64,000 nt of DNA from Bacteroidota bacterium (GCA_020056225.1 JAGVIE010000017.1:251-64250), one strand, 5' to 3'. Counted from the stretch's first letter, positions 7,847 through 28,829 are shown. Notes: generated by a model from the sequence alone, not told the origin. Numbers and translations: made by a program.

Positions 7847-8371
7847 TTAGTCTTCAATTTCTTCTCGAAACTCAAGCTCAGGCGTGAATATCCTGAATTT
7901 ACGTGTCCAGTGTTCTCTTCGATTCGTAGTCAGCGTGATCCGCAGTGAATCGTATTTCCAATCGGTTGCCATTGTGTCTTTTAAGGGATAACCGTATTTT
8001 TGTCTGACATTTTTCTCAAGATTGTTGAATTCGAAATCGAGGAGTTGTGAATAATAGACATGGAATACTTTCAGCTTATCATCCCGAAAAATTAACTTAA
8101 TTCTATCTATGCTGCGTAAATTGCCGGTTCTTTGTTGAGCTGGCAATATCCATAAACAAGTATCGCTGTTACTGTTAACCGGCGAGCATTTTAGAGCTGG
8201 GATGATCGCAAGTGCCTGGTCTTTGCTAAGGTATAGACGGATTCCGTTGAAATTGATTTCATGCGGCGGAATATTCCTGTGACCGGATGAACATCCAGCT
8301 ACAAATAATAAGAATAAACTTCCAGCCACTATAAACAAAATATAACTAACCCGCAATCCTGCCATTATCAA
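7847..8371 (-). CDS. Lipoprotein of unknown function
   Basis: Signal peptide with lipobox (LFLLFVAGCSS), 174 aa. Co-directional with and abutting the upstream gene. Confidence 0.55.
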   Translation of the reverse strand: MIMAGLRVSYILFIVAGSLFLLFVAGCSSGHRNIPPHEINFNGIRLYLSKDQALAIIPALKCSPVNSNSDTCLWILPAQQRTGNLRSIDRIKLIFRDDKLKVFHVYYSQLLDFEFNNLEKNVRQKYGYPLKDTMATDWKYDSLRITLTTNRREHWTRKFRIFTPELEFREEIED

Positions 8372-9466
8372 TTAGTTCCCCGCTTTTTGTTTCGCTTCCT
8401 TGAATCGTTGTAGTTGCTTCCAATATTCATCGTTGGTCGGATCTTTAGTTACAAGCTCCGCCTCTATCGCAACAGCTTCGGTATAATGCTTCAGCCGAAA
8501 AAAACATTCCGCCATTGTATCCAGATAAGATAACTGACCGGGAGCCAGCCTGACTGCGCGTTTGGCAAGTTCCAATGCCCGCTCGTAATCGATTTCATTT
8601 GTGGCGAGGATCCATGCGATGTTGTTCAATAAAGCAGGATCGTCGGGTTTCAGGCGCAATTGAATATTAAGCTCCTCCGTCAATCTTTTTTTCTCTTCAT
8701 CTGCCCGAATGAATTTCTTTTTCCTGTTCAATTCAGCGATCATCCTCAGACGGGCATCGAACAAAAATGTTTCCTTCCATAGGTTGTATATTCTTCGCAG
8801 TTCTACGAGTGGCAAAGAATCGTCATCGACACGGATATCGACCATCTTGTCATTGAATCCTCCATAACCGCCTTTATCCTGCACAACGAGAAGCGCGGCG
8901 GATTGTCTGCCCCGTTTATCTCCGCCTGCTTTTTCTCCTGCATCAAGAGCGTTTAGCAACCGATCGGCAAGATCGCCGGGGGAATTTTCAAATGTTCTTG
9001 CCATTGCTACAATAACTTCTCTTCCGGCAAGAATATTGCCTTGCACTGTGTAAGTGTAGCCGTAAAGATGTCCCGCGTAATTATTACAACCCGGACCTGT
9101 GAAAGCGAAAGAGTTTCCGTGCGCATCGATAACTCCTAATTGTCTGTATTCTGCACTTGTATCCTCTCGTATCAGTTGTTCTACGGTTTGTTGTGCAGTC
9201 TCGCCGCTTTCAAGAAGTTCCAATCCTCTGGGTCCGAATGTAGTATTGGCAAAAGCTTGTGTAGCAATCGCGCCAACGCCTGCTTTTGCATAAGGAACGA
9301 CCGCCCCAACGCCAAGAAATTTGGATTGTACGGCTACACCTAAATCACCCGTGGATGAATCCCATGCTACTATGGAATATGTTGCAACAACCGATGACGT
9401 TTCCTTCGGCTGAGCAATTAGAAGTAGCTGGCAAAAGAATATTAGTGATAAGATTGATTTAATCAT
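8372..9466 (-). CDS. Secreted DUF1028-like (Ntn-hydrolase-fold) protein with a C-terminal TPR-like helical region
   Basis: Signal peptide followed by SIVAWDSSTGDLGVAVQSKFLGVGAVVPYAKAGVGAIATQ, which is a DUF1028-type N-terminus. The C-terminal ~110 aa is helical and TPR-like. Confidence 0.55.
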   Translation of the reverse strand: MIKSILSLIFFCQLLLIAQPKETSSVVATYSIVAWDSSTGDLGVAVQSKFLGVGAVVPYAKAGVGAIATQAFANTTFGPRGLELLESGETAQQTVEQLIREDTSAEYRQLGVIDAHGNSFAFTGPGCNNYAGHLYGYTYTVQGNILAGREVIVAMARTFENSPGDLADRLLNALDAGEKAGGDKRGRQSAALLVVQDKGGYGGFNDKMVDIRVDDDSLPLVELRRIYNLWKETFLFDARLRMIAELNRKKKFIRADEEKKRLTEELNIQLRLKPDDPALLNNIAWILATNEIDYERALELAKRAVRLAPGQLSYLDTMAECFFRLKHYTEAVAIEAELVTKDPTNDEYWKQLQRFKEAKQKAGN

Positions 9467-9576
9467 CGAAGTTCAATCAATATTAATAGAATATTTTCCT
9501 GTTATGGAAAGGAATTATCTTCAATAAAATAAAAAAAGATTTTGATGACTTAGATGAATCTTTACATTTAAGATAA

Positions 9577-10674
9577 TTATTTATCGGTAGAGAGCCGGAA
9601 TCGCCGGATCATATCGTTGCCGCTGTCGGCGATATACAATGTCTTGACTTTGAATGCAACACCTTTCGGATTTTTCAAAGGCGGTCTATCTAATAACTTC
9701 AAGGCAGCCGCTCCGAAAGATTCGGATTTGAAATTCCCTCTCCGATCGAATTTTACCAATGAATCCAGTTTGCTATCTATGATAAATATGTCTGCATACG
9801 ATCCACCAATTACCGGCGCTGACGGTTCGACAAAGCGGTTCGGCTTAATGAAATCGCGATACTTTTCTTCCGGTTTAGTTGGATTGAACTTCGGATTCCA
9901 CCCTTCATCGGGGAGTTTCGTATAGACCATCCACAGCGCACAGTACGGCATAGTACCATTAACTGAGCTTTGAGTTAACACAAAATCGTTGCTGTTCGGG
10001 AACATTGCAATGCCAGTCGGTCTGAGGATATCCGTTATCCCGGATCCGGCACGGGTCGTCAGATCACTTAGGGTCGTGATTTTATTGTCGTTCTTATCGA
10101 ACCAAATCACTTTACTATCCGGATCTATAAAGCTTGAATTATCAGGACCGTCGCACGCTACAAAATATTGGTTCTCAAGCAATACGCCAATACCGGTGAA
10201 TCTCCTGTTAGGTTTTGACGGCTCAATCCATACTGTTTCAATCTGTGCCTGAGCGAGATGATGTGCCGCCTCATAGAGATGTATCCTAAATATAGCGCCT
10301 ATCGTATCGCCTGAAGCGGGATAATATATTTCCCCCGATACTAAAAGATCGAGCCGAAGATCCTGCGCTATAGCTATGGGTTGTAAAATCTCACGAGTTT
10401 CCAGAATGATCCCGGCTTCATTCATCTGGACAAGTCTATTGTTATTCTTATCGGCTATGTAAAGCAGTTGATCGTTGCCTGCGAGAATTGCGGTAGGATT
10501 ATTAAAGCCAGTAAATGAGGGCGTGATTTCAACGTATGAAGTATCGTTTACGCTGTTGTACGAAACACTAACCAATTTATTTATCGGATATTTCTCGTCT
10601 CCGGTACATCCGGTAATCAATAAAAGAAAAATTAGAATTGATATTATCGTTATATATGACTGCTTGATCTTCAT
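9577..10674 (-). CDS. NHL-repeat beta-propeller lipoprotein
   Basis: Lipobox LITGCTGD and repeated LYIAD..NNRLV / LYIADSGNDMIRRF NHL-like motifs. Confidence 0.55.
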   Translation of the reverse strand: MKIKQSYITIISILIFLLLITGCTGDEKYPINKLVSVSYNSVNDTSYVEITPSFTGFNNPTAILAGNDQLLYIADKNNNRLVQMNEAGIILETREILQPIAIAQDLRLDLLVSGEIYYPASGDTIGAIFRIHLYEAAHHLAQAQIETVWIEPSKPNRRFTGIGVLLENQYFVACDGPDNSSFIDPDSKVIWFDKNDNKITTLSDLTTRAGSGITDILRPTGIAMFPNSNDFVLTQSSVNGTMPYCALWMVYTKLPDEGWNPKFNPTKPEEKYRDFIKPNRFVEPSAPVIGGSYADIFIIDSKLDSLVKFDRRGNFKSESFGAAALKLLDRPPLKNPKGVAFKVKTLYIADSGNDMIRRFRLSTDK

Positions 10675-21596: not shown

Positions 21597-22910
21597 ATGC
21601 TCTTCTTCTCAAAACACATTCAGAAATATTTTCACCTCCCGGTTATTCTTTTTCTTTTTATCGCGCCATCCAATATCATCGCACAGAGTAACAACGTTTA
21701 CGTAATCTCGATAGATGGTGCCATAAATCCTGCTTCATCGGATTTCATTCATGAAAGCATTCAAAAAGCCGAGGAAGCAAACGCACAATGTCTTGTCGTT
21801 TTACTTAATACTCCTGGCGGATTATTGAAATCAACTCGAGTAATCGTATCGGAATTTTTGAATTCTCCCATACCGATCGTTGTATATATCTCACCCGCCG
21901 GCTCGCAAGCGGCATCGGCAGGAGTTTTTATAACACTTGCGGCTCATATAGCAGTGATGTCACCCGGAACAAATATCGGCGCCGCTCATCCGATTACAAT
22001 CGGCGAACAAAAAGATTCTATCATGCTGGAAAAAGCTACAAATGACGCCGCCGCTTTTATTCGTACAATAAGCGAGAAGCGTCATCGTAACATCCGGTGG
22101 GCTGAAGATGCAGTCCGCAAAAGTATATCCATCACAGAAACGGAAGCGCTCAAGGAAAACGTTATCGATACAATCGCGTTAAATTTAAAATCTTTGCTTG
22201 CAATAATAGACAATCGAGAAATTGAAACAGCTTCAGGGAGACGAATTCTTCATACAAAAGATGCGAGTATCACAAACATCGAAAAAACCTTTCAGCAAAA
22301 GATACTTGATATCCTCAGTGATCCGAATATAGCGTATATCCTAATGATGCTTGGCATTTACGGATTATTGTTCGAACTATACAATCCAGGATCTATTCTT
22401 CCCGGTATTGTCGGATTTATCTGTCTCGTATTAGCATTTTATTCAATGCATACCCTCCCGATTAACTATGCCGGCTTGGCTTTAATTCTATTTGCAATTG
22501 TTCTCTTTCTTTTGGAAATTACAATCGTAAGCCATGGACTTTTAACCATAGGCGGTGTTATTTCTTTAGCATTAGGGTCGATTATGCTTATACAAACTGA
22601 TTCGATGTTAGAGTTTGTTTCAATATCATGGGAAGTTATCGCAATAACTATATTGATAACTGTTGCATTCTTCGCATTTGCTATTGGTATGGGAATTAAA
22701 GCGCAAAAACGCAAGCCGACAACAGGTGTGCAAGGAATCATCGGTGAAATCGGTGAGGTTAGTCAAGACCTCCGCCCAGAGGGAACAGTAAAAGTACATG
22801 GAGAAATCTGGAATGCGACAAGTCTTGATGGAAACCTAAAGAAAGGCGTAAAAGTTAAAGTTGAATCGATTGTTAATCTTAAATTAAAAGTCAGAAAATC
22901 AGAATCATAA
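21597..22910 (+). CDS. NfeD-like membrane-bound serine protease (ClpP-class), stomatin operon partner
   Basis: Signal/TM region, then the ClpP-like fold VISIDGAINPASSDFI...LLNTPGG, multiple TM helices, and a C-terminal OB-fold beta domain. Lies 7 bp upstream of an SPFH gene. Confidence 0.8.
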   Translation: MLFFSKHIQKYFHLPVILFLFIAPSNIIAQSNNVYVISIDGAINPASSDFIHESIQKAEEANAQCLVVLLNTPGGLLKSTRVIVSEFLNSPIPIVVYISPAGSQAASAGVFITLAAHIAVMSPGTNIGAAHPITIGEQKDSIMLEKATNDAAAFIRTISEKRHRNIRWAEDAVRKSISITETEALKENVIDTIALNLKSLLAIIDNREIETASGRRILHTKDASITNIEKTFQQKILDILSDPNIAYILMMLGIYGLLFELYNPGSILPGIVGFICLVLAFYSMHTLPINYAGLALILFAIVLFLLEITIVSHGLLTIGGVISLALGSIMLIQTDSMLEFVSISWEVIAITILITVAFFAFAIGMGIKAQKRKPTTGVQGIIGEIGEVSQDLRPEGTVKVHGEIWNATSLDGNLKKGVKVKVESIVNLKLKVRKSES

Positions 22911-22916
22911 ACCAAT

Positions 22917-23690
22917 TTGGAGGAATCCATGGAAGCTGTATCGATATTTTTTACAATGATAATAATATTTGGCATCATCATTCTCTCAAACGCCATCCGA
23001 GTTTTGCGTGAATATGAACGCGGAGTCATATTTCGATTAGGCAGACTTATTGCTACTAAAGGTCCGGGTATCATCTTTCTGATCCCGCTTGTCGATCGTA
23101 TGGTGAAAGTAAGTTTGCGGACTGTTGTTTTAGATGTTCCACCCCAAGACGTTATTACTAAAGATAACGTCTCGATAAAGGTCAATGCAGTATTATATTT
23201 TCGTGTTGTGCAACCGGAAAAAGCCATAGTGGAAGTCGAGAACTTCCTGTTTGCTACCTCTCAGCTATCACAAACGACTCTCAGGAGCATTTTAGGACAA
23301 TCAGAACTTGATGAGCTTCTCGCACAGCGTGATAAAATCAATCGTATGCTTCAGCAAATAATCGATGAACACACCGAACCATGGGGCATCAAAGTATCTA
23401 ATGTTGAAGTGAAGCAAATCGATCTTCCGATCGAAATGCAGCGCGCAATGGCAAAGCAGGCAGAAGCTGAGCGTGAACGCAGGGCAAAAGTTGTTCATGC
23501 TGAAGGCGAATTTCAAGCAAGTCAGAAACTTTCAGACGCTGCGAGAATCATCAGTGAAACGCCGATTGCATTACAATTAAGATATTTGCAGACTCTCACT
23601 GAAATCGGCGCTGATAAAAATTCTACGATCATATTCCCCTTGCCTATGGACATTATTGAGCCGTTCCTAGAGCGTGCAAGAAAAAAGTGA
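22917..23690 (+). CDS. SPFH/band-7 (stomatin-like) protein
   Basis: N-terminal TM helix and the band-7 core [12 protein letters not shown]...[15 protein letters not shown], with a coiled-coil C-terminus. Classic pairing with NfeD. Confidence 0.85.
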
Positions 23691-23699
23691 TATTACAAT

Positions 23700-26075
23700 G
23701 TGATGAACCAACTAATATACGGTGCTAATCAAGAAGAAAAGATTGTAGCCGTACATCCAGCGAGCGAACGCACGGTAAAAATGTTCATCAGAAATCCAGA
23801 GGGAATTATCTCTAATGAAATAGAGTTTTTCCCTTTTTTCTTTCTATCGAATCAAAAGTACCTAAGCGATTACCCAAAGAAGCATTGGATTAAGGAACTT
23901 ACAGGAGAGAACTACTACCGTTATCTATGCGTATTTAACGGTTGGTTGGATATGTGGGATGCAATCCGCCATTGTTTGGAGCGTTATAATGAAAACGCGC
24001 CGCAGAAAATAGATTCATATACCGAGATGCCGGTTCTTCGTGTCCGCACCGACCCGGTTGCCCAGTTCTTGAAGCAAAGCGGCCGTACACTTTTCAAAGG
24101 AATGAAGTTCGATGACCTGCACCGAATTCAGCTTAGCATTAAAACCTATGTAAAGCACGGTTTCAAAATCAGCAATCCAAACCGCGAGGAAGATCGCATT
24201 GTTGCAATTGCATTGTCCGATAATCATGGATGGGAATATCAGATTACTGGAAAGAGAAAATCAGAGAAAGAAATGCTTCTCGATCTGATTAAAGTATTGC
24301 AGGAAAAAGATGCGGACGTTATTGAAGGACATAATAGCATCGATAAACATATTCACTATTTGATGACAAGATGTGAAATCCACGGCTTGGAATTCAATAT
24401 TGGCAGAGACGGATCAATTCCCCACCACTCTGAAGCGCGTTCTTTGTACGGAGAACGAACGGCAAACTACATTCCATATGAGATCGTTGGCAGACACGTA
24501 ATCGATACTGCCACATTATTGCAATCGTACGATTCAACGAAACACGAATTAGACAATTATAATCTAGAACATGCGGCACAACATTTCGGTATTTCAAAAG
24601 TAGATCGTTTATATATATCACCGGATCGTGTAAGCTGGTACAGTGACAACGAACCCGATAATCTTGTCCAATCCAGTATCGATGATGTGCGCGAGATACG
24701 TTTACTCAGTGATTACCTGTCACCGGATTATTTCCACCAAACTCAAATGTTGCCGTTTAATTATGCGACAGTAACACGTTTGAATTCTAACAATAAAATC
24801 GAATCTCTATTACTCCGAGAATATATCCGGCAGAAGCATTCTATTCCCCGCCCGGAAATCGGTTCTCAACCTCAGATTGGGGGTTCAGAAATATTTTACA
24901 GAGGTCTACTTGGACCGATTATCGATCTCGATATAGAATCAATCTACCCATCAATCATATTAGCACATAATATTGTACCGAAGAATGACACACTCGGTGC
25001 ATTCCCGAAAATATTGAACGGCTTAACGGATCATCTCAGTGATCTTAAAAGACAAGTTAAAATAGCAGACAACTCGTATTCTAATGTCACAAGTGAAGCA
25101 ACTGAAATAGGGCTTAAGGTCTTGATAAATTCATTCTATGCATATATTGGGAACAGCCGTGCACTTTTTAACGATTATAAAGCCGCACGGACTATTGGAG
25201 AGGCAAGGCAAGATATGCTTCGTCAACTTATGTCTGCAATAACCTCTTTGAATGGCAAAGTGATCGAGATTGATTCCAACAGTATATGTTTTGTCCCTCC
25301 TGTAGCTGTCAATACTGAAACAAAGGAAAAGGAATTGTTAAAGAATATTGCCAGATGCCTTCCTTCGGGAATAACTTTGCAGATGAATGATAGATATAAA
25401 AGAATGCTGAGTTATAAAAAGAATAACTACGTACTTTTAGGATATGACGGTAAGGTAACAATAAAAGGGTCATCCCTTATACCGAGAAATATCGAGAGAT
25501 TCGGCCGCGAATTCATTACTCAGTGCATCTCAGCCATAATGAATCTAAATTTTACCTCTGTCCACGATTATTACATCGACTGCAATAAAGCAATTGTCGA
25601 GCGCAAACTGAGCATCCAGGATTTTGCCCGCATAGAAATTCTCCGAGATACCTATGATGAGTACACACAATCCGTTAATCGGGGTGACCGGTACCGCTCG
25701 GCAAGCTATGAAGTAGCAATCAACTCGGGAATGAATTGGAAACAAGGAGATAAAATATCGTATTACATTACGGGTGATGATACAAGCATCAAAGGATTTG
25801 ATCAGTATAAAGCCGCTATTGACTGGGATAAGAATTTCAGGGATGAGAATGTCGGTTATTACCTAAAACGATTAGAAGAATTGGCTAAAAGATTTGCATC
25901 ACTATTTTCTGAAAAAGATTATCATGCGTTGTTTTCTGTTGATGACCTTTTCGGATTTTCACCTGAAGGTATACAAATCCAGACAACACAGATAAAAGAG
26001 GAACCAAAAGATCTCGACGAAGAAACTGAACAAATACAAGTCGAGCCAAGAATCTGGCTTGATGAAGAGATTTAA
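23700..26075 (+). CDS. Family-B DNA polymerase (E. coli Pol II-like) homolog with substituted exonuclease and polymerase catalytic residues
   Basis: Collinear with Pol II across its length. The Exo II region DADVIEGHNSIDKH aligns to DPDVIIGWNVVQFD, motif A LDIESIYPSII to LDYKSLYPSII, motif B KVLINSFYAYIG to KIIMNAFYGVLG, and motif C VIEIDSNSI to VIYGDTDST. The Exo I acidic residues are A/S, the Exo II Asp is His, and the motif C second Asp is Asn. The true start is probably the ATG at 23703. It sits 9 bp after the SPFH gene. Confidence 0.7.
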   Translation: MMNQLIYGANQEEKIVAVHPASERTVKMFIRNPEGIISNEIEFFPFFFLSNQKYLSDYPKKHWIKELTGENYYRYLCVFNGWLDMWDAIRHCLERYNENAPQKIDSYTEMPVLRVRTDPVAQFLKQSGRTLFKGMKFDDLHRIQLSIKTYVKHGFKISNPNREEDRIVAIALSDNHGWEYQITGKRKSEKEMLLDLIKVLQEKDADVIEGHNSIDKHIHYLMTRCEIHGLEFNIGRDGSIPHHSEARSLYGERTANYIPYEIVGRHVIDTATLLQSYDSTKHELDNYNLEHAAQHFGISKVDRLYISPDRVSWYSDNEPDNLVQSSIDDVREIRLLSDYLSPDYFHQTQMLPFNYATVTRLNSNNKIESLLLREYIRQKHSIPRPEIGSQPQIGGSEIFYRGLLGPIIDLDIESIYPSIILAHNIVPKNDTLGAFPKILNGLTDHLSDLKRQVKIADNSYSNVTSEATEIGLKVLINSFYAYIGNSRALFNDYKAARTIGEARQDMLRQLMSAITSLNGKVIEIDSNSICFVPPVAVNTETKEKELLKNIARCLPSGITLQMNDRYKRMLSYKKNNYVLLGYDGKVTIKGSSLIPRNIERFGREFITQCISAIMNLNFTSVHDYYIDCNKAIVERKLSIQDFARIEILRDTYDEYTQSVNRGDRYRSASYEVAINSGMNWKQGDKISYYITGDDTSIKGFDQYKAAIDWDKNFRDENVGYYLKRLEELAKRFASLFSEKDYHALFSVDDLFGFSPEGIQIQTTQIKEEPKDLDEETEQIQVEPRIWLDEEI

Positions 26076-26085
26076 GTTCGAAATC

Positions 26086-26493
26086 TTAATACTGAATATT
26101 TACTGTAACCCAATTTTTTACGTAAGCAACTATGTCTATTGTCGATGCGCCAGGTGTGAATAATTCTCCGACCCCCTTTTTCTTTAACACTTGGATATCT
26201 TGATCCGGTATTATTCCTCCTCCGAAGAGTAAGACATCTTTAAGCCCTTTATCTCTCATTAGATCGAGTATACGGGGGAATATCGTCATGTGCGCGCCGC
26301 TTAATATGCTGACACCTATTGCATTAACATCCTCTTGAAGAGCCGCTTCAACTACCATCTCTGGCGTCTTCCGGAGACCTGTGTAAATTACTTCCATACC
26401 GGAATCCCTAAGGGCGGCAGCAATGACTTTTGCGCCACGATCATGACCGTCGAGCCCGACTTTTGCAACTAATACTCTTATTTTTCTGTCCAT
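26086..26493 (-). CDS. Stand-alone cobalamin (B12)-binding domain protein (methylmalonyl-CoA mutase small-subunit-like)
   Basis: DGHDRG (DxHxxG) B12-binding motif within a Rossmann-like sequence, and an SxL...GG motif. Length 135 aa. Confidence 0.8.
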
Positions 26494-26502
26494 AGCAGCT
26501 CC

Positions 26503-27096
26503 TTACAAAATTCCTAATGATTCTTGAAATTGTTGCATAGCAAGATAAAACTTTGCCAATGGAAATCCAACTACATTATAAAAACATCCGTCGATTTTTT
26601 CAACGAAGACTGCCCCGTAATCATCTTGTATTCCATAAGCGCCAGCTTTATCCATGGGTGATCCCGATCGGACGTATTCTTCAATTTCGTCGTTAGTCAA
26701 TAGTCTAAACGTTACATCTGTTACCGCATGATCTGTCAACGCCAAGTTCGAAGGTCTATCCAGTATAGTAAATCCGGTAAATACCCTGTGCGTTCTTCCG
26801 CTTAGTGTACGAAGCATGTTAATGGCATCTTTTTCGTCGGCTGGTTTTCCCAATATATTTCCATCAAGTTCAACAATCGTATCGGCTCCGATAACAAAAC
26901 CATTCTCAATATTTTTCCCGACTTCAACAGCTTTCCGATGAGATAGTATCTTTACATGATCGAGCGGCGCCTGGATGTGCTCGAAATCCTCATCGACTCC
27001 ACTTTCCTGAACGATAAATTCCAACCCGATTTGCCGCAACAAAATTTGTCTGCGTGGGGAACGAGACGCGAGGATTATCTTTTTCTTAACTAACAT
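26503..27096 (-). CDS. maf: Maf-like nucleoside triphosphate pyrophosphatase
   Basis: ILASRSPRRQILL N-terminus and conserved Maf core, 197 aa. Confidence 0.85.
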   Translation of the reverse strand: MLVKKKIILASRSPRRQILLRQIGLEFIVQESGVDEDFEHIQAPLDHVKILSHRKAVEVGKNIENGFVIGADTIVELDGNILGKPADEKDAINMLRTLSGRTHRVFTGFTILDRPSNLALTDHAVTDVTFRLLTNDEIEEYVRSGSPMDKAGAYGIQDDYGAVFVEKIDGCFYNVVGFPLAKFYLAMQQFQESLGIL

Positions 27097-27596: not shown

Positions 27597-27657
27597 AATT
27601 ACTAATTGAAGATATGAAGGAAGAAGGAGAAAGTCAAGTGTTTTTTGATATTTTCAG

Positions 27658-27741
27658 TGCGCGAGGCGAGACTTGAACTCGCATGCCCTTCCGGGCGCCA
27701 CCCCCTCAAGATGGTGTGTCTGCCAGTTCCACCACTCGCGC
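27658..27741 (-). tRNA. tRNA-Leu (anticodon GAG), type II
   Basis: The reverse complement has a GCGCGAG acceptor stem, anticodon stem CCATC/GGTGG with loop TTGAGGG, variable arm GCCC-GGAA-GGGC, and T-arm GCGAG-TTCAAGT-CTCGC. The two ORFs called here are spurious. Confidence 0.8.
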
Positions 27742-27810
27742 AAATTATATCAAAATTCAAAAGGATAAAGTAGAAAAAAGCTTGATATTCAAATTGATAC
27801 GGCGTTTTTG

Positions 27811-27883
27811 TGAACCCGGTTGGATTCGAACCAACGGCCCTCGCCTTAAAAGGGCGATGCTCTACCAGCTGAGCTACGGGTTC
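27811..27883 (-). tRNA. tRNA-Lys (anticodon TTT)
   Basis: The reverse complement reads GAACCCG-TA-GCTC-AGCTGGTAGAGC-A-TCGCC-CTTTTAA-GGCGA-GGGCC-GTTGG-TTCGAAT-CCAAC-CGGGTTC-A. Confidence 0.85.
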
Positions 27884-28109
27884 CTCACCAAATAATAGCA
27901 TTAAGCTTTATTTCAGCTTAAAAATATAAGAAAAATATTCGGGAGTAGCAAGAGGATTGTCATCTATTCTATCAATTTATGATGAAACGCCATTAGATTA
28001 ACGCTAACAGTATGCTCGTGGAGATGAAAATCGATGTTATATTTAAGCTCATGTCAATATGCGAATCATTTCCACTGTCGAATCAATCCTGAAAGTGAGT
28101 CGTAAATCG

Positions 28110-28829
28110 TTATCCTGCCGGTTCAATGCATGCCGATGTATCATCACGACTATTGTTTACCGCATACGAAACAATATACGCATCCATCTCATTCTCAGGA
28201 TAGGGATCTAACAAATCGTAGAGTGTTTCGAAATCTTTGACACCAGTTTCAAGCCAGAGCTTTAAATCGTTATCATTTAATATCACCGGCATCCTATTAT
28301 GAATTGGTTTCATTAATTCGTTCGGACTTGTGGTGATGATCCCCGCAGTTACAATCTTTTTCTCCTCTACTTCAATCGAACGCCATAAACCGGCAAGCGC
28401 AAATGGTTGTTTATTTTTCATTGTGATGCGATAAGGTATTTTCTTTACACCTTTTGGTAATTTCTCGCCCCTAACAAGACTCTCGTAACCCTTGGGTTTC
28501 TTCCACTCATAAAATCCATCAGCGACAAAGATACAGCGATTAGTTAATAATCGTTCCCGGAAGAATTTATTTCTCTCGATTGTATCATCCCGAATGTTTG
28601 CCTGAGAAGTGTTTGAATCATTATCTTTCTCACCCCATGGTGTGATGAATCCCCAAAACATATTCGTAAGGTAGCGCTTACCATCTTTTGATACGATAAC
28701 CGGAACCGATTGCCCCGGCGCTGCATTATAACGGGGTTTGAACCCATCAAAACCAGGCGCTACTTCAGCTTTGAATCGTTCAAGTACAAGTTCTACTCTG
28801 TCCGTTGTTATAGTAAATCTGCCGCACAT
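28110..28829 (-). CDS. SOS-response-associated peptidase (SRAP/YedK, abasic-site DNA-protein crosslink family)
   Basis: Invariant N-terminal MCGRF (catalytic Cys2), 239 aa. Confidence 0.8.
   Translation of the reverse strand: MCGRFTITTDRVELVLERFKAEVAPGFDGFKPRYNAAPGQSVPVIVSKDGKRYLTNMFWGFITPWGEKDNDSNTSQANIRDDTIERNKFFRERLLTNRCIFVADGFYEWKKPKGYESLVRGEKLPKGVKKIPYRITMKNKQPFALAGLWRSIEVEEKKIVTAGIITTSPNELMKPIHNRMPVILNDNDLKLWLETGVKDFETLYDLLDPYPENEMDAYIVSYAVNNSRDDTSACIEPAG

Follow-up and report, generated by a model that had tools for sequence, protein, structure and literature searches.

A G3-group bacterial family-B DNA polymerase homologue with replaced residues in both active sites, retained under purifying selection

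In two published surveys, canonical bacterial family-B DNA polymerases (PolBs) are sorted into three groups: G1 (Pol II), G2, which derives from archaeal PolB2 and has a dead exonuclease, and G3 (PMC7544198; PMC12926913). According to the same surveys, G3 is the second largest group, kin to Pol epsilon's active N-terminal half, uncharacterised, and conserved in both its exonuclease and its polymerase active sites (PMC7544198; PMC12926913); one of them adds that it has the widest distribution of the three and occurs in all Chlorobi (PMC12926913). Here, we describe a G3 homologue that departs from this picture, a 791-residue protein encoded at positions 23700..26075 (+) of a 64,000-nucleotide stretch of DNA from a Bacteroidota bacterium (GCA_020056225.1, JAGVIE010000017.1:251-64250), which was analysed as a whole and is hereafter called the window. 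The protein shares with the group its architecture, its motif C Glu (E523) and its syntenic slot, but not its conserved catalytic sites. We consider it probable (about 0.6) that it is an exonuclease-dead and probably polymerase-dead pseudo-enzyme with a non-catalytic role.

PolBs that have become inactivated are already familiar from Pol epsilon's C-terminal half and from PolB2 as first interpreted. The former preserves the fold of a PolB without its catalytic residues and plays a structural, replisome-binding role (PMC2669801; PMC7544198), but it comes from eukaryotes, is joined to an active module, is far more degenerate and has CMG (Cdc45–MCM–GINS) as its partner, whereas the window protein stands alone. 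PolB2/G2 resembles the window protein in being full length, in having its exonuclease site disrupted and in departing from the canonical motif C; it was long predicted to be inactive and is retained under selection (PMC2527604; PMC7544198). Yet G2/PolB2, which is without exonuclease motifs and was once called inactivated, is an active translesion synthesis (TLS) polymerase (PMC7544198; PMC8764526), a precedent that runs counter to an earlier note on this DNA, made from the sequence alone, in which such inactivation was not known to be established among bacterial proteins of the Pol II family.

Membership of the window protein in PolB2/G2 was rejected. That clade is B1-3-like, whereas the window protein is Epsilon-N-like, and it is defined by the absence of Exo III and of the first motif C Asp, compensated by a D(K/R) motif and a conserved motif C His (PMC7544198); the window protein, in contrast, has a recognisable Exo III (SSIDD), keeps the first Asp (D525) and has instead lost the second, metal-ligating one. 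Degeneration also concerns the whole group in B2/G2, whereas in G3 it is sporadic among orthologues of an otherwise intact group. E. coli Pol II, an accessory and non-essential enzyme, is likewise a bacterial PolB of similar length and domain order, but has intact active sites and a YGDTDS-type motif C without the G3 Glu. Bacteria are already known to have pseudo-polymerases, namely ImuB and some PolX, and ImuB, the catalytically dead Y-family polymerase homologue of the ImuA–ImuB–DnaE2 mutasome, is functionally the best analogue of a dead G3 PolB with C-terminal LF-type motifs. It belongs, however, to the Y and not the B family and is encoded with imuA and dnaE2, whereas no such partner flanks the window PolB.

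Descent from active G3 polymerases

The gene starts with a GTG at 23700, with an ATG as the next codon (23703), and its product has more than 3,900 homologues and matches the Pfam families DNA_pol_B (E value 1.3e-15) and DNA_pol_B_exo1 (4e-9). An AlphaFold2 model, for which 34 relatives served as the input alignment, is confident (mean predicted local distance difference test (pLDDT) score of 85.1, predicted template modelling score of 0.74), with disorder limited to a loop (residues 246–256) and the tail (768–791), and Foldseek superposes it over roughly 790 columns on the KOD, 9N and Tgo PolBs with template modelling (TM) scores of 0.70–0.73. Judged by this model, the window protein is a complete family-B polymerase fold and no fragment. 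The open reading frame (ORF), the Pfam matches and the full-length superposition agree in this with the earlier note, which had called a full-length PolB homologue.

That note had, at the same time, framed the protein as belonging, in inactivated form, to the family of E. coli Pol II (G1). The two are indeed similar in length (791 versus 783 residues), collinear in domain order and weakly similar in sequence, but archaeal PolB scores far better: a PDB search matched Thermococcales PolB at roughly 1e-29 against 1e-4 for E. coli Pol II, which ranks below the archaeal (PolB3-type) structures and Pol delta, and a family-profile search gave 1e-63 against 1e-20. The NCBIfam equivalog models for Pol II reach 65.5, 39.5 and 26.5 bits, far below their cut-offs of 570, 1103 and 1435. 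Moreover, a Glu in motif C (E-x-D-T-D-G) is a synapomorphy of G3, B10 and Pol-epsilon-N (PMC7544198), and this residue is E523 in the query; close relatives have the Glu in 104 of 121 cases, and the intact members defined below in 160 of 173. Chlorobi, finally, have just one PolB, which is orthologous to the window protein and is placed in G3 in the literature, and we give Pol II membership virtually no credence.

The G3 architecture (N-terminal, DnaQ-like exonuclease and polymerase domains in roughly 730–800 residues) is present in the window protein, whose full-length relatives come from Prosthecochloris vibrioformis DSM 260, Chlorobaculum, Chlorobium, Rhodothermales, Kryptonia, Ignavibacteria and NC10, among others. 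Because it has the motif C Glu and full-length relatives that include the Chlorobi PolB, we place the protein in G3, and by orthology and synteny it is a G3 (Pol-epsilon-N-like) bacterial PolB by descent.

The synteny is that of a conserved slot. PolB is preceded by NfeD (21597..22910, +) and SPFH/Band_7 (22917..23690, +), the latter 9–12 nt before the PolB start, and is followed on the opposite strand by a B12-binding domain protein (26086..26493, −), Maf (26503..27096, −) and a small protein. This order, with the genes identified by Pfam, occurs in at least 13 genomes; synteny of the two upstream genes extends to at least 13 loci and that of the two downstream genes to 22–24 loci, and the contigs of the relatives P0002, P0003 and P0054 all have their PolB in the same NfeD-Band_7-B12-Maf slot. 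The catalytic state of the occupant varies. PolB is fully intact in L003, L006, L008, L009, L014, L049 and P0003/L082, dead in the exonuclease only in L017, L021, L027 and L029, and degenerate in both exonuclease and polymerase in the window, L001, L081, L002 and P0054 (heavily so in the last). The window gene is thus the positional orthologue of an active G3 polymerase and is probably the resident G3 copy of an Ignavibacteria-like bacterium of the Fibrobacteres–Chlorobi–Bacteroidetes (FCB) group; no second PolB was found within the 64-kb window.

Replaced residues in the exonuclease and polymerase sites

We aligned the query with 120 database relatives (44–63% identity) and with the PolBs of 80 species-level genomes, and mapped KOD residues onto it through gap-free pairwise alignments to 9N/KOD and a family profile alignment. 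Sequences that are canonical at all 15 catalytic or substrate positions, which make up 173 of the 201, are called intact, and the catalytic positions discussed below are invariant in all of them. When the 80 genomes were scored at 17 motif positions (the 15 together with motif B Gly481 and motif C Glu523), all 17 were unchanged in roughly 71 genomes from many phyla, the patterns of this genome scan being skewed to an intact motif B. The query does not carry the catalytic signature described for G3, from which it departs by D146S, E148K, D217H, Y325S, R446L, Q469E, D527N and K575N.

In the exonuclease domain, the true Exo I lies at residues 146–148 (24135..24143, +), where the family D-I-E (KOD D141/E143; D/E in 173 of 173 intact sequences) has become S-I-K, so that the family stretch LQLDIETY reads IQLSIKTY in the query and both carboxylates are lost (D146S, E148K). 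The earlier note had recognised a loss of Exo I but located it elsewhere, as a change from IDIE to IALS. We rejected that location (residues 170–173), as the alignments and the family profile identify IALSD (170–174; 24207..24221, +) as a structural strand that is conserved in active relatives, pairs with KOD ISYAD and has D174 in 121 of 121 relatives. Exo II (GHNSIDKH, 24327..24350, +; family GHNIFNFD; KOD N210/D215) retains N212 and carries F216K and D217H, the latter, which had been noted before, standing in gap-free alignments both to 9N/KOD and to the family. Exo III had been described as unrecognisable, but S325-S-I-D-D329 (24672..24686, +) aligns with the family YALDD (KOD Y311/D315), with Tyr325 replaced by Ser and D329 retained. 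With replacements at three of the four DEDD carboxylates and at the Tyr, the sequence indicates that 3′–5′ exonuclease catalysis is lost.

The polymerase domain presents a more mixed picture. Motif A (LDIESIYPS, 24927..24953, +) keeps D411 (KOD D404) and the steric-gate Y416 (KOD Y409), and the 9N/KOD and family alignments bear out the earlier statement that its Asp is retained. The fingers and motif B (residues 446–484; 25035..25151, +) carry R446L (KOD R460), Q469E (KOD Q483) and G481A (KOD G495), and keep K450, K473, N477 and Y480 (KOD K464, K487, N491 and Y494). Motif C reads E523-I-D-S-N527-S (25266..25283, +) where the family has E-V-D-T-D-G: E523 and the first Asp, D525 (KOD D540), are kept, and the changes are T526S, D527N and G528S. 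The second Asp (KOD D542), invariant in the 173 intact relatives, is therefore an Asn, as had been reported. In the KxY region (K-K-N575-N-Y577, 25416..25430, +; family K-K-K-N-Y; KOD K592/Y594), Y577 is kept and what was earlier read as an insertion in KKNNY is, in a gap-free alignment, the substitution K575N. Six changes had previously gone unmentioned, namely R446L, Q469E, G481A, T526S, G528S and G564D.

The ternary complexes of KOD and 9N have D404 and D542 as ligands of metals A and B, with R460 and Q483 holding the γ-phosphate of the deoxynucleoside triphosphate (PMC5718519). With an Asp that ligates metals A and B, the γ-phosphate Arg and Gln and the primer-contacting Lys of KxY all replaced, we predict that nucleotidyl transfer is very probably abolished or cut by orders of magnitude. 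Over the 109 columns conserved at 97% or more among intact relatives, the query has 22 mismatches, against a mean of 0.78 and a maximum of 5 in the intact members themselves.

Such changes might be produced by misaligned motifs or by assembly errors in a metagenome-assembled genome (MAG), and the placement of Exo I in the earlier note was indeed a misalignment. However, the motif columns are gap-free and have invariant flanks against more than 100 relatives at 44–63% identity, the profile-to-KOD alignment concurs, and neither residues 146, 148 and 527 nor their immediate neighbours are acidic, the sole new carboxylate nearby being D564; at Exo I and motif C, no acidic residue has merely shifted. 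The same residues also recur in independent assemblies. L001, from another MAG and 93% identical, has exactly the same set of catalytic residues as the window PolB, and P0002, from a metagenome contig of the Joint Genome Institute (JGI; contig L081) and 63% identical, shares S146, K148, L446, S526, N527 and N575 while still having the Exo II Asp. The substitutions therefore stand, recurring in full in the close orthologue and in part in the distant one, and we find an artefact scarcely credible.

Purifying selection and a retained function

The PolB genes of the window and of L001 (positions 8001-10376) are separated by 72.5 synonymous and 58.5 non-synonymous differences, and the ratio of non-synonymous to synonymous substitution rates (dN/dS) is 0.196 (Nei-Gojobori; binomial p=3e-18 against neutrality). 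PolB is under purifying selection, and amino-acid substitutions avoid the family-conserved columns, of which 2.4% differ from L001 compared to 8.7% elsewhere (p=6e-4) and 24% differ from P0002 compared to 43% elsewhere (p=7e-8). The ORF is full length, at 790–792 residues, in the window, L001 and L081. For 12 neighbouring genes, a set that excludes a probably spurious antisense ORF (22763-23227, over NfeD/SPFH; dN/dS 0.224), dN/dS is 0.014–0.118 with a median of roughly 0.06, which makes PolB about threefold more relaxed than the genes that flank it. The synonymous rate (dS) of PolB between the window and L001 is low, 0.163, compared to 0.24–0.64 in most flanking genes and up to 1.3; local recombination or codon constraints could account for this, and its dN/dS is therefore somewhat inflated.

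Relaxation is unevenly spread over the protein. With the SPFH, B12 and Maf neighbours as an internal clock, the divergence of PolB relative to its neighbours is 1.58 between intact orthologues, 2.09 between degenerate and intact ones and 2.59 between degenerate ones. The divergence of polymerase-degenerate lineages relative to intact orthologues is highest in the fingers (1.63-fold), followed by the N-terminal palm (1.34), the exonuclease domain (1.26), the C-terminal palm (1.24) and the thumb (1.19), and falls to 0.99 in the N-terminal domain and 0.81 in the C-terminal FSxDDLFGF motif. Lineages in which only the exonuclease is dead, which act as an internal control, are faster solely in the exonuclease domain. 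This pattern is as expected if nucleotide binding and catalysis are unselected while the fold and some interaction surfaces are selected. In the window protein, the N-terminal domain (residues 1–130; 23700..24089, +) is the most constrained part, with a dN/dS of 0.05 against L001 and pLDDT scores above 90.

Two conserved motifs mark the C-terminus. The first, FSVDDLFGFSPEGI (residues 745–758; 25932..25973, +), contains FSxDDLFGF (745–753) and is conserved in FCB-type G3 proteins and in nearly all polymerase-degenerate relatives; the second, RIWLDEE (784–790; 26049..26069, +), is the end of the disordered acidic tail (pLDDT roughly 34) and is conserved in the Ignavibacteria-type clade, degenerate members included. 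The DDLFGF segment is a candidate partner- or β-clamp-binding peptide, and a β-clamp-binding motif is ascribed to G3 in one survey (PMC12926913). Shorter G3 PolBs of roughly 730–745 residues (L054-L080; delta-proteobacterial, NC10, Planctomycete and Verrucomicrobial) end in a KFxPFF-type C-terminus, without the extension of about 50 residues, containing FSxDDLFGF and the acidic tail, that is seen in FCB-group G3 proteins, and there are thus two C-terminal architectures within the group.

In the reading that we favour, the window PolB would act by binding and not by chemistry, docking on DNA and/or a replisome partner through its unchanged N-terminal domain, its thumb and its C-terminal motifs (DDLFGF and IWLDE), a mode of action for which ImuB and the inactive half of Pol epsilon are the nearest analogues. 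The catalytic metal ligands are replaced, the fold is retained and purifying selection has continued after the loss, since the window protein has substitutions in common with a still full-length orthologue at 63% identity and dN/dS is 0.196. An inactivated PolB kept for a non-catalytic role is also what the earlier note had proposed; the replaced sites, their recurrence and the low dN/dS speak for that proposal, of which the loss of polymerase activity is a prediction only. Several points weigh against it. Intact G3 pairs have dN/dS values of 0.04–0.30 (0.147 at the same dS, for L068/L078), a range that spans 0.20, so that overall dN/dS cannot separate dead from active copies. D411, D525, Y416, K450, K473, N477 and Y480 are all kept, Asn can coordinate metal weakly, and G564D places a new carboxylate beside the position equivalent to KOD E580, although it is absent in P0002 and its strand position suggests a side chain that points away from the active site. 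The DDLFGF segment, at a pLDDT of roughly 82–84, is unusually well ordered for a free linear motif. Above all, archaeal PolB2, once predicted inactive, is a robust polymerase (PMC8764526), which makes polymerase loss in the window protein a strong prediction and not a demonstration. PolB2 and piPolB, however, are missing the first Asp of motif C and possess features that compensate (PMC7544198); as a different Asp is lost here, the precedent is not directly transferable.

The most serious competitor is a working polymerase that has shed proofreading, an error-tolerant, TLS-like enzyme with D411, D525 and perhaps N527 or D564 as its metal ligands. The retained motif A Asp, first motif C Asp, steric-gate Tyr and motif B Lys, Asn and Tyr would suit it, as would continuing purifying selection and the activity of PolB2/Dpo2 and piPolB despite a degenerate motif C (PMC7544198; PMC8764526). 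G3 copies with a dead exonuclease and an intact polymerase are, moreover, common (19 of 86 cluster representatives in the survey reported below, besides L017, L021, L027 and L029), so that loss of proofreading with retained synthesis is a real evolutionary state. Against this stands the identity of the lost Asp (KOD D542), a direct ligand of metals A and B and not the one missing from PolB2 and piPolB; it went together with the equivalents of R460, Q483 and the KxY Lys, all invariant in the 173 intact relatives. The fingers, which form the dNTP-binding module, show the strongest relaxation of all domains where the polymerase is degenerate but not where the exonuclease alone is dead, and the motif A Asp is gone entirely in sister lineages, which neighbour the query in the tree: among the top 120 relatives, a list skewed to the query's own kin, it is Val or Phe in P0008, P0013/L002, P0020 and P0046, and Ser, with the motif B Lys changed to Asp, in P0054 and P0073, while P0105 has Asp-to-Glu changes in motifs A and C. 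In sister lineages of the same slot that lack the motif A Asp, the ORF is still full length and the LF motif at the C-terminus is retained, and the protein family therefore persists without polymerase chemistry. We regard a TLS-like enzyme as unlikely, if a good deal more plausible than the alternative that the gene of a dispensable accessory polymerase is becoming a pseudogene, with its ORF not yet disrupted. Bacterial PolBs are indeed described as non-essential accessory enzymes in one survey (PMC12926913), and both the dN/dS of the window gene (0.20, about three times the neighbours' median of roughly 0.06) and its divergence relative to flanking genes (2.1–2.6 compared to 1.6 for intact orthologues) are raised. 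But dN/dS is far under 1 (p=3e-18), substitutions avoid conserved columns, constraint on the N-terminal domain and the C-terminal motifs matches that in intact orthologues, and the window, L001 and L081 all have an undisrupted ORF despite key substitutions that predate the split at 63% identity, all of which makes incipient decay very improbable and leaves a non-catalytic pseudo-enzyme as the reading that we prefer.

Degenerate copies in other genomes and the surrounding genes

An exhaustive search of 1.84 billion cluster representatives returned 409 clusters at E<=1e-30. Among the 86 well-aligned 50%-identity representatives within the best 150 of these, 56 retain the residues of both sites (exo+pol+), 19 are exo-pol+, 9 exo-pol- and 2 exo+pol-, so that exonuclease and/or polymerase residues are lost in 30 of the 86, counts in which clustering at 50% over-represents fast-evolving lineages. 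Roughly 20 further high-coverage representatives, gapped at motif positions, look heavily degenerate. Degenerate G3 copies are thus frequent in metagenomes, and nearly all polymerase-degenerate representatives have xxLFxF at the position of DDLFGF. Several representatives (P0136, P0140, P0160, P0190, P0216, P0250 and others) are 1000–1750 residues long with two separate matches to the query, and are probably intein-containing or fused PolBs.

The literature that we searched holds no description of sporadic, repeated G3 degeneration among positional orthologues under purifying selection, and such degeneration appears to be undescribed so far. We tentatively propose that FCB-group G3 PolBs have repeatedly become folded, selected but inactive pseudo-polymerases in place, at the same locus, which keep only the constraints on the N-terminal domain and the C-terminal LF-type docking motifs. 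If so, the conserved role of G3 would be at least partly non-catalytic, for example as clamp or replisome occupancy or as an ImuB-like adaptor, and these proteins would be the first class of B-family pseudo-polymerases in bacteria.

G3 has no experimentally known function, and the degenerate series offers a handle on that of a widespread group: the positional orthologues of one gene range from intact through exonuclease-dead to devoid of polymerase metal ligands, all under purifying selection. Should the dead copies be functional, the series would be a natural separation-of-function set in which the N-terminal domain and the C-terminal motifs carry the selected function; should activity be retained instead, the window protein would have a new, non-canonical PolB active site with Asn in place of a ligand of metals A and B. 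In the 2026 survey, Chlorobi have a DnaE1 whose PHP (polymerase/histidinol phosphatase) domain is inactive, lack a canonical DnaQ and invariably carry one G3 PolB (PMC12926913). If G3 were to proofread in trans for FCB bacteria, it would be surprising that Ignavibacteria-type copies so often lose the exonuclease site.

Turning to the neighbourhood, the NfeD–SPFH pair lies just upstream of the G3 PolB in L001-L003, L006, L008, L009, L014, L017 and L021 and likewise in L027, L029, L049, L081 and L082, a set that spans an entire clade. NfeD, SPFH and PolB may form one operon. A membrane-scaffold pair beside a DNA polymerase is odd. A functional link between the pair and PolB was set aside, as the synteny holds regardless of catalytic state, and NfeD–SPFH therefore serves as an orthology marker only. 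No gene for a polymerase or repair partner flanks the window PolB, and a scan for promoters and terminators around it found sites no more numerous than in shuffled sequence. An origin in a defence system was likewise rejected: the sole PADLOC match, PDLC03707 'HEase' (7e-19), spans that part of a 1671-position profile which corresponds to the PolB exonuclease; it is an artefact, most likely due to an intein-bearing PolB in the model, and no evidence for a defence role. A phage origin was rejected, too, the PHROGs matches being to generic DNA polymerase families and the context being chromosomal with uniform GC content.

Two kilobases downstream of PolB is an SRAP/YedK-like gene (28110-28829, −), which is syntenic in L001 and L081 (the P0002 contig) and not in more distant loci. 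SRAP/YedK is an SOS-response-associated peptidase that crosslinks abasic sites. A 99-residue ORF at 27602-27901 (−) is spurious, overlapping tRNA-Leu(gag) (27657-27741) and tRNA-Lys(ttt) (27810-27883). The remainder of the window is largely occupied by a starch and glycan utilisation region (28887-62696), which fits the chromosomal context of an FCB-group bacterium and encodes several alpha-amylases with type IX secretion system (T9SS; Por_Secre_tail) sorting domains, TonB-dependent receptors, a GH31 protein, a glucan phosphorylase and a MalK-type ATP-binding cassette (ABC) ATPase.

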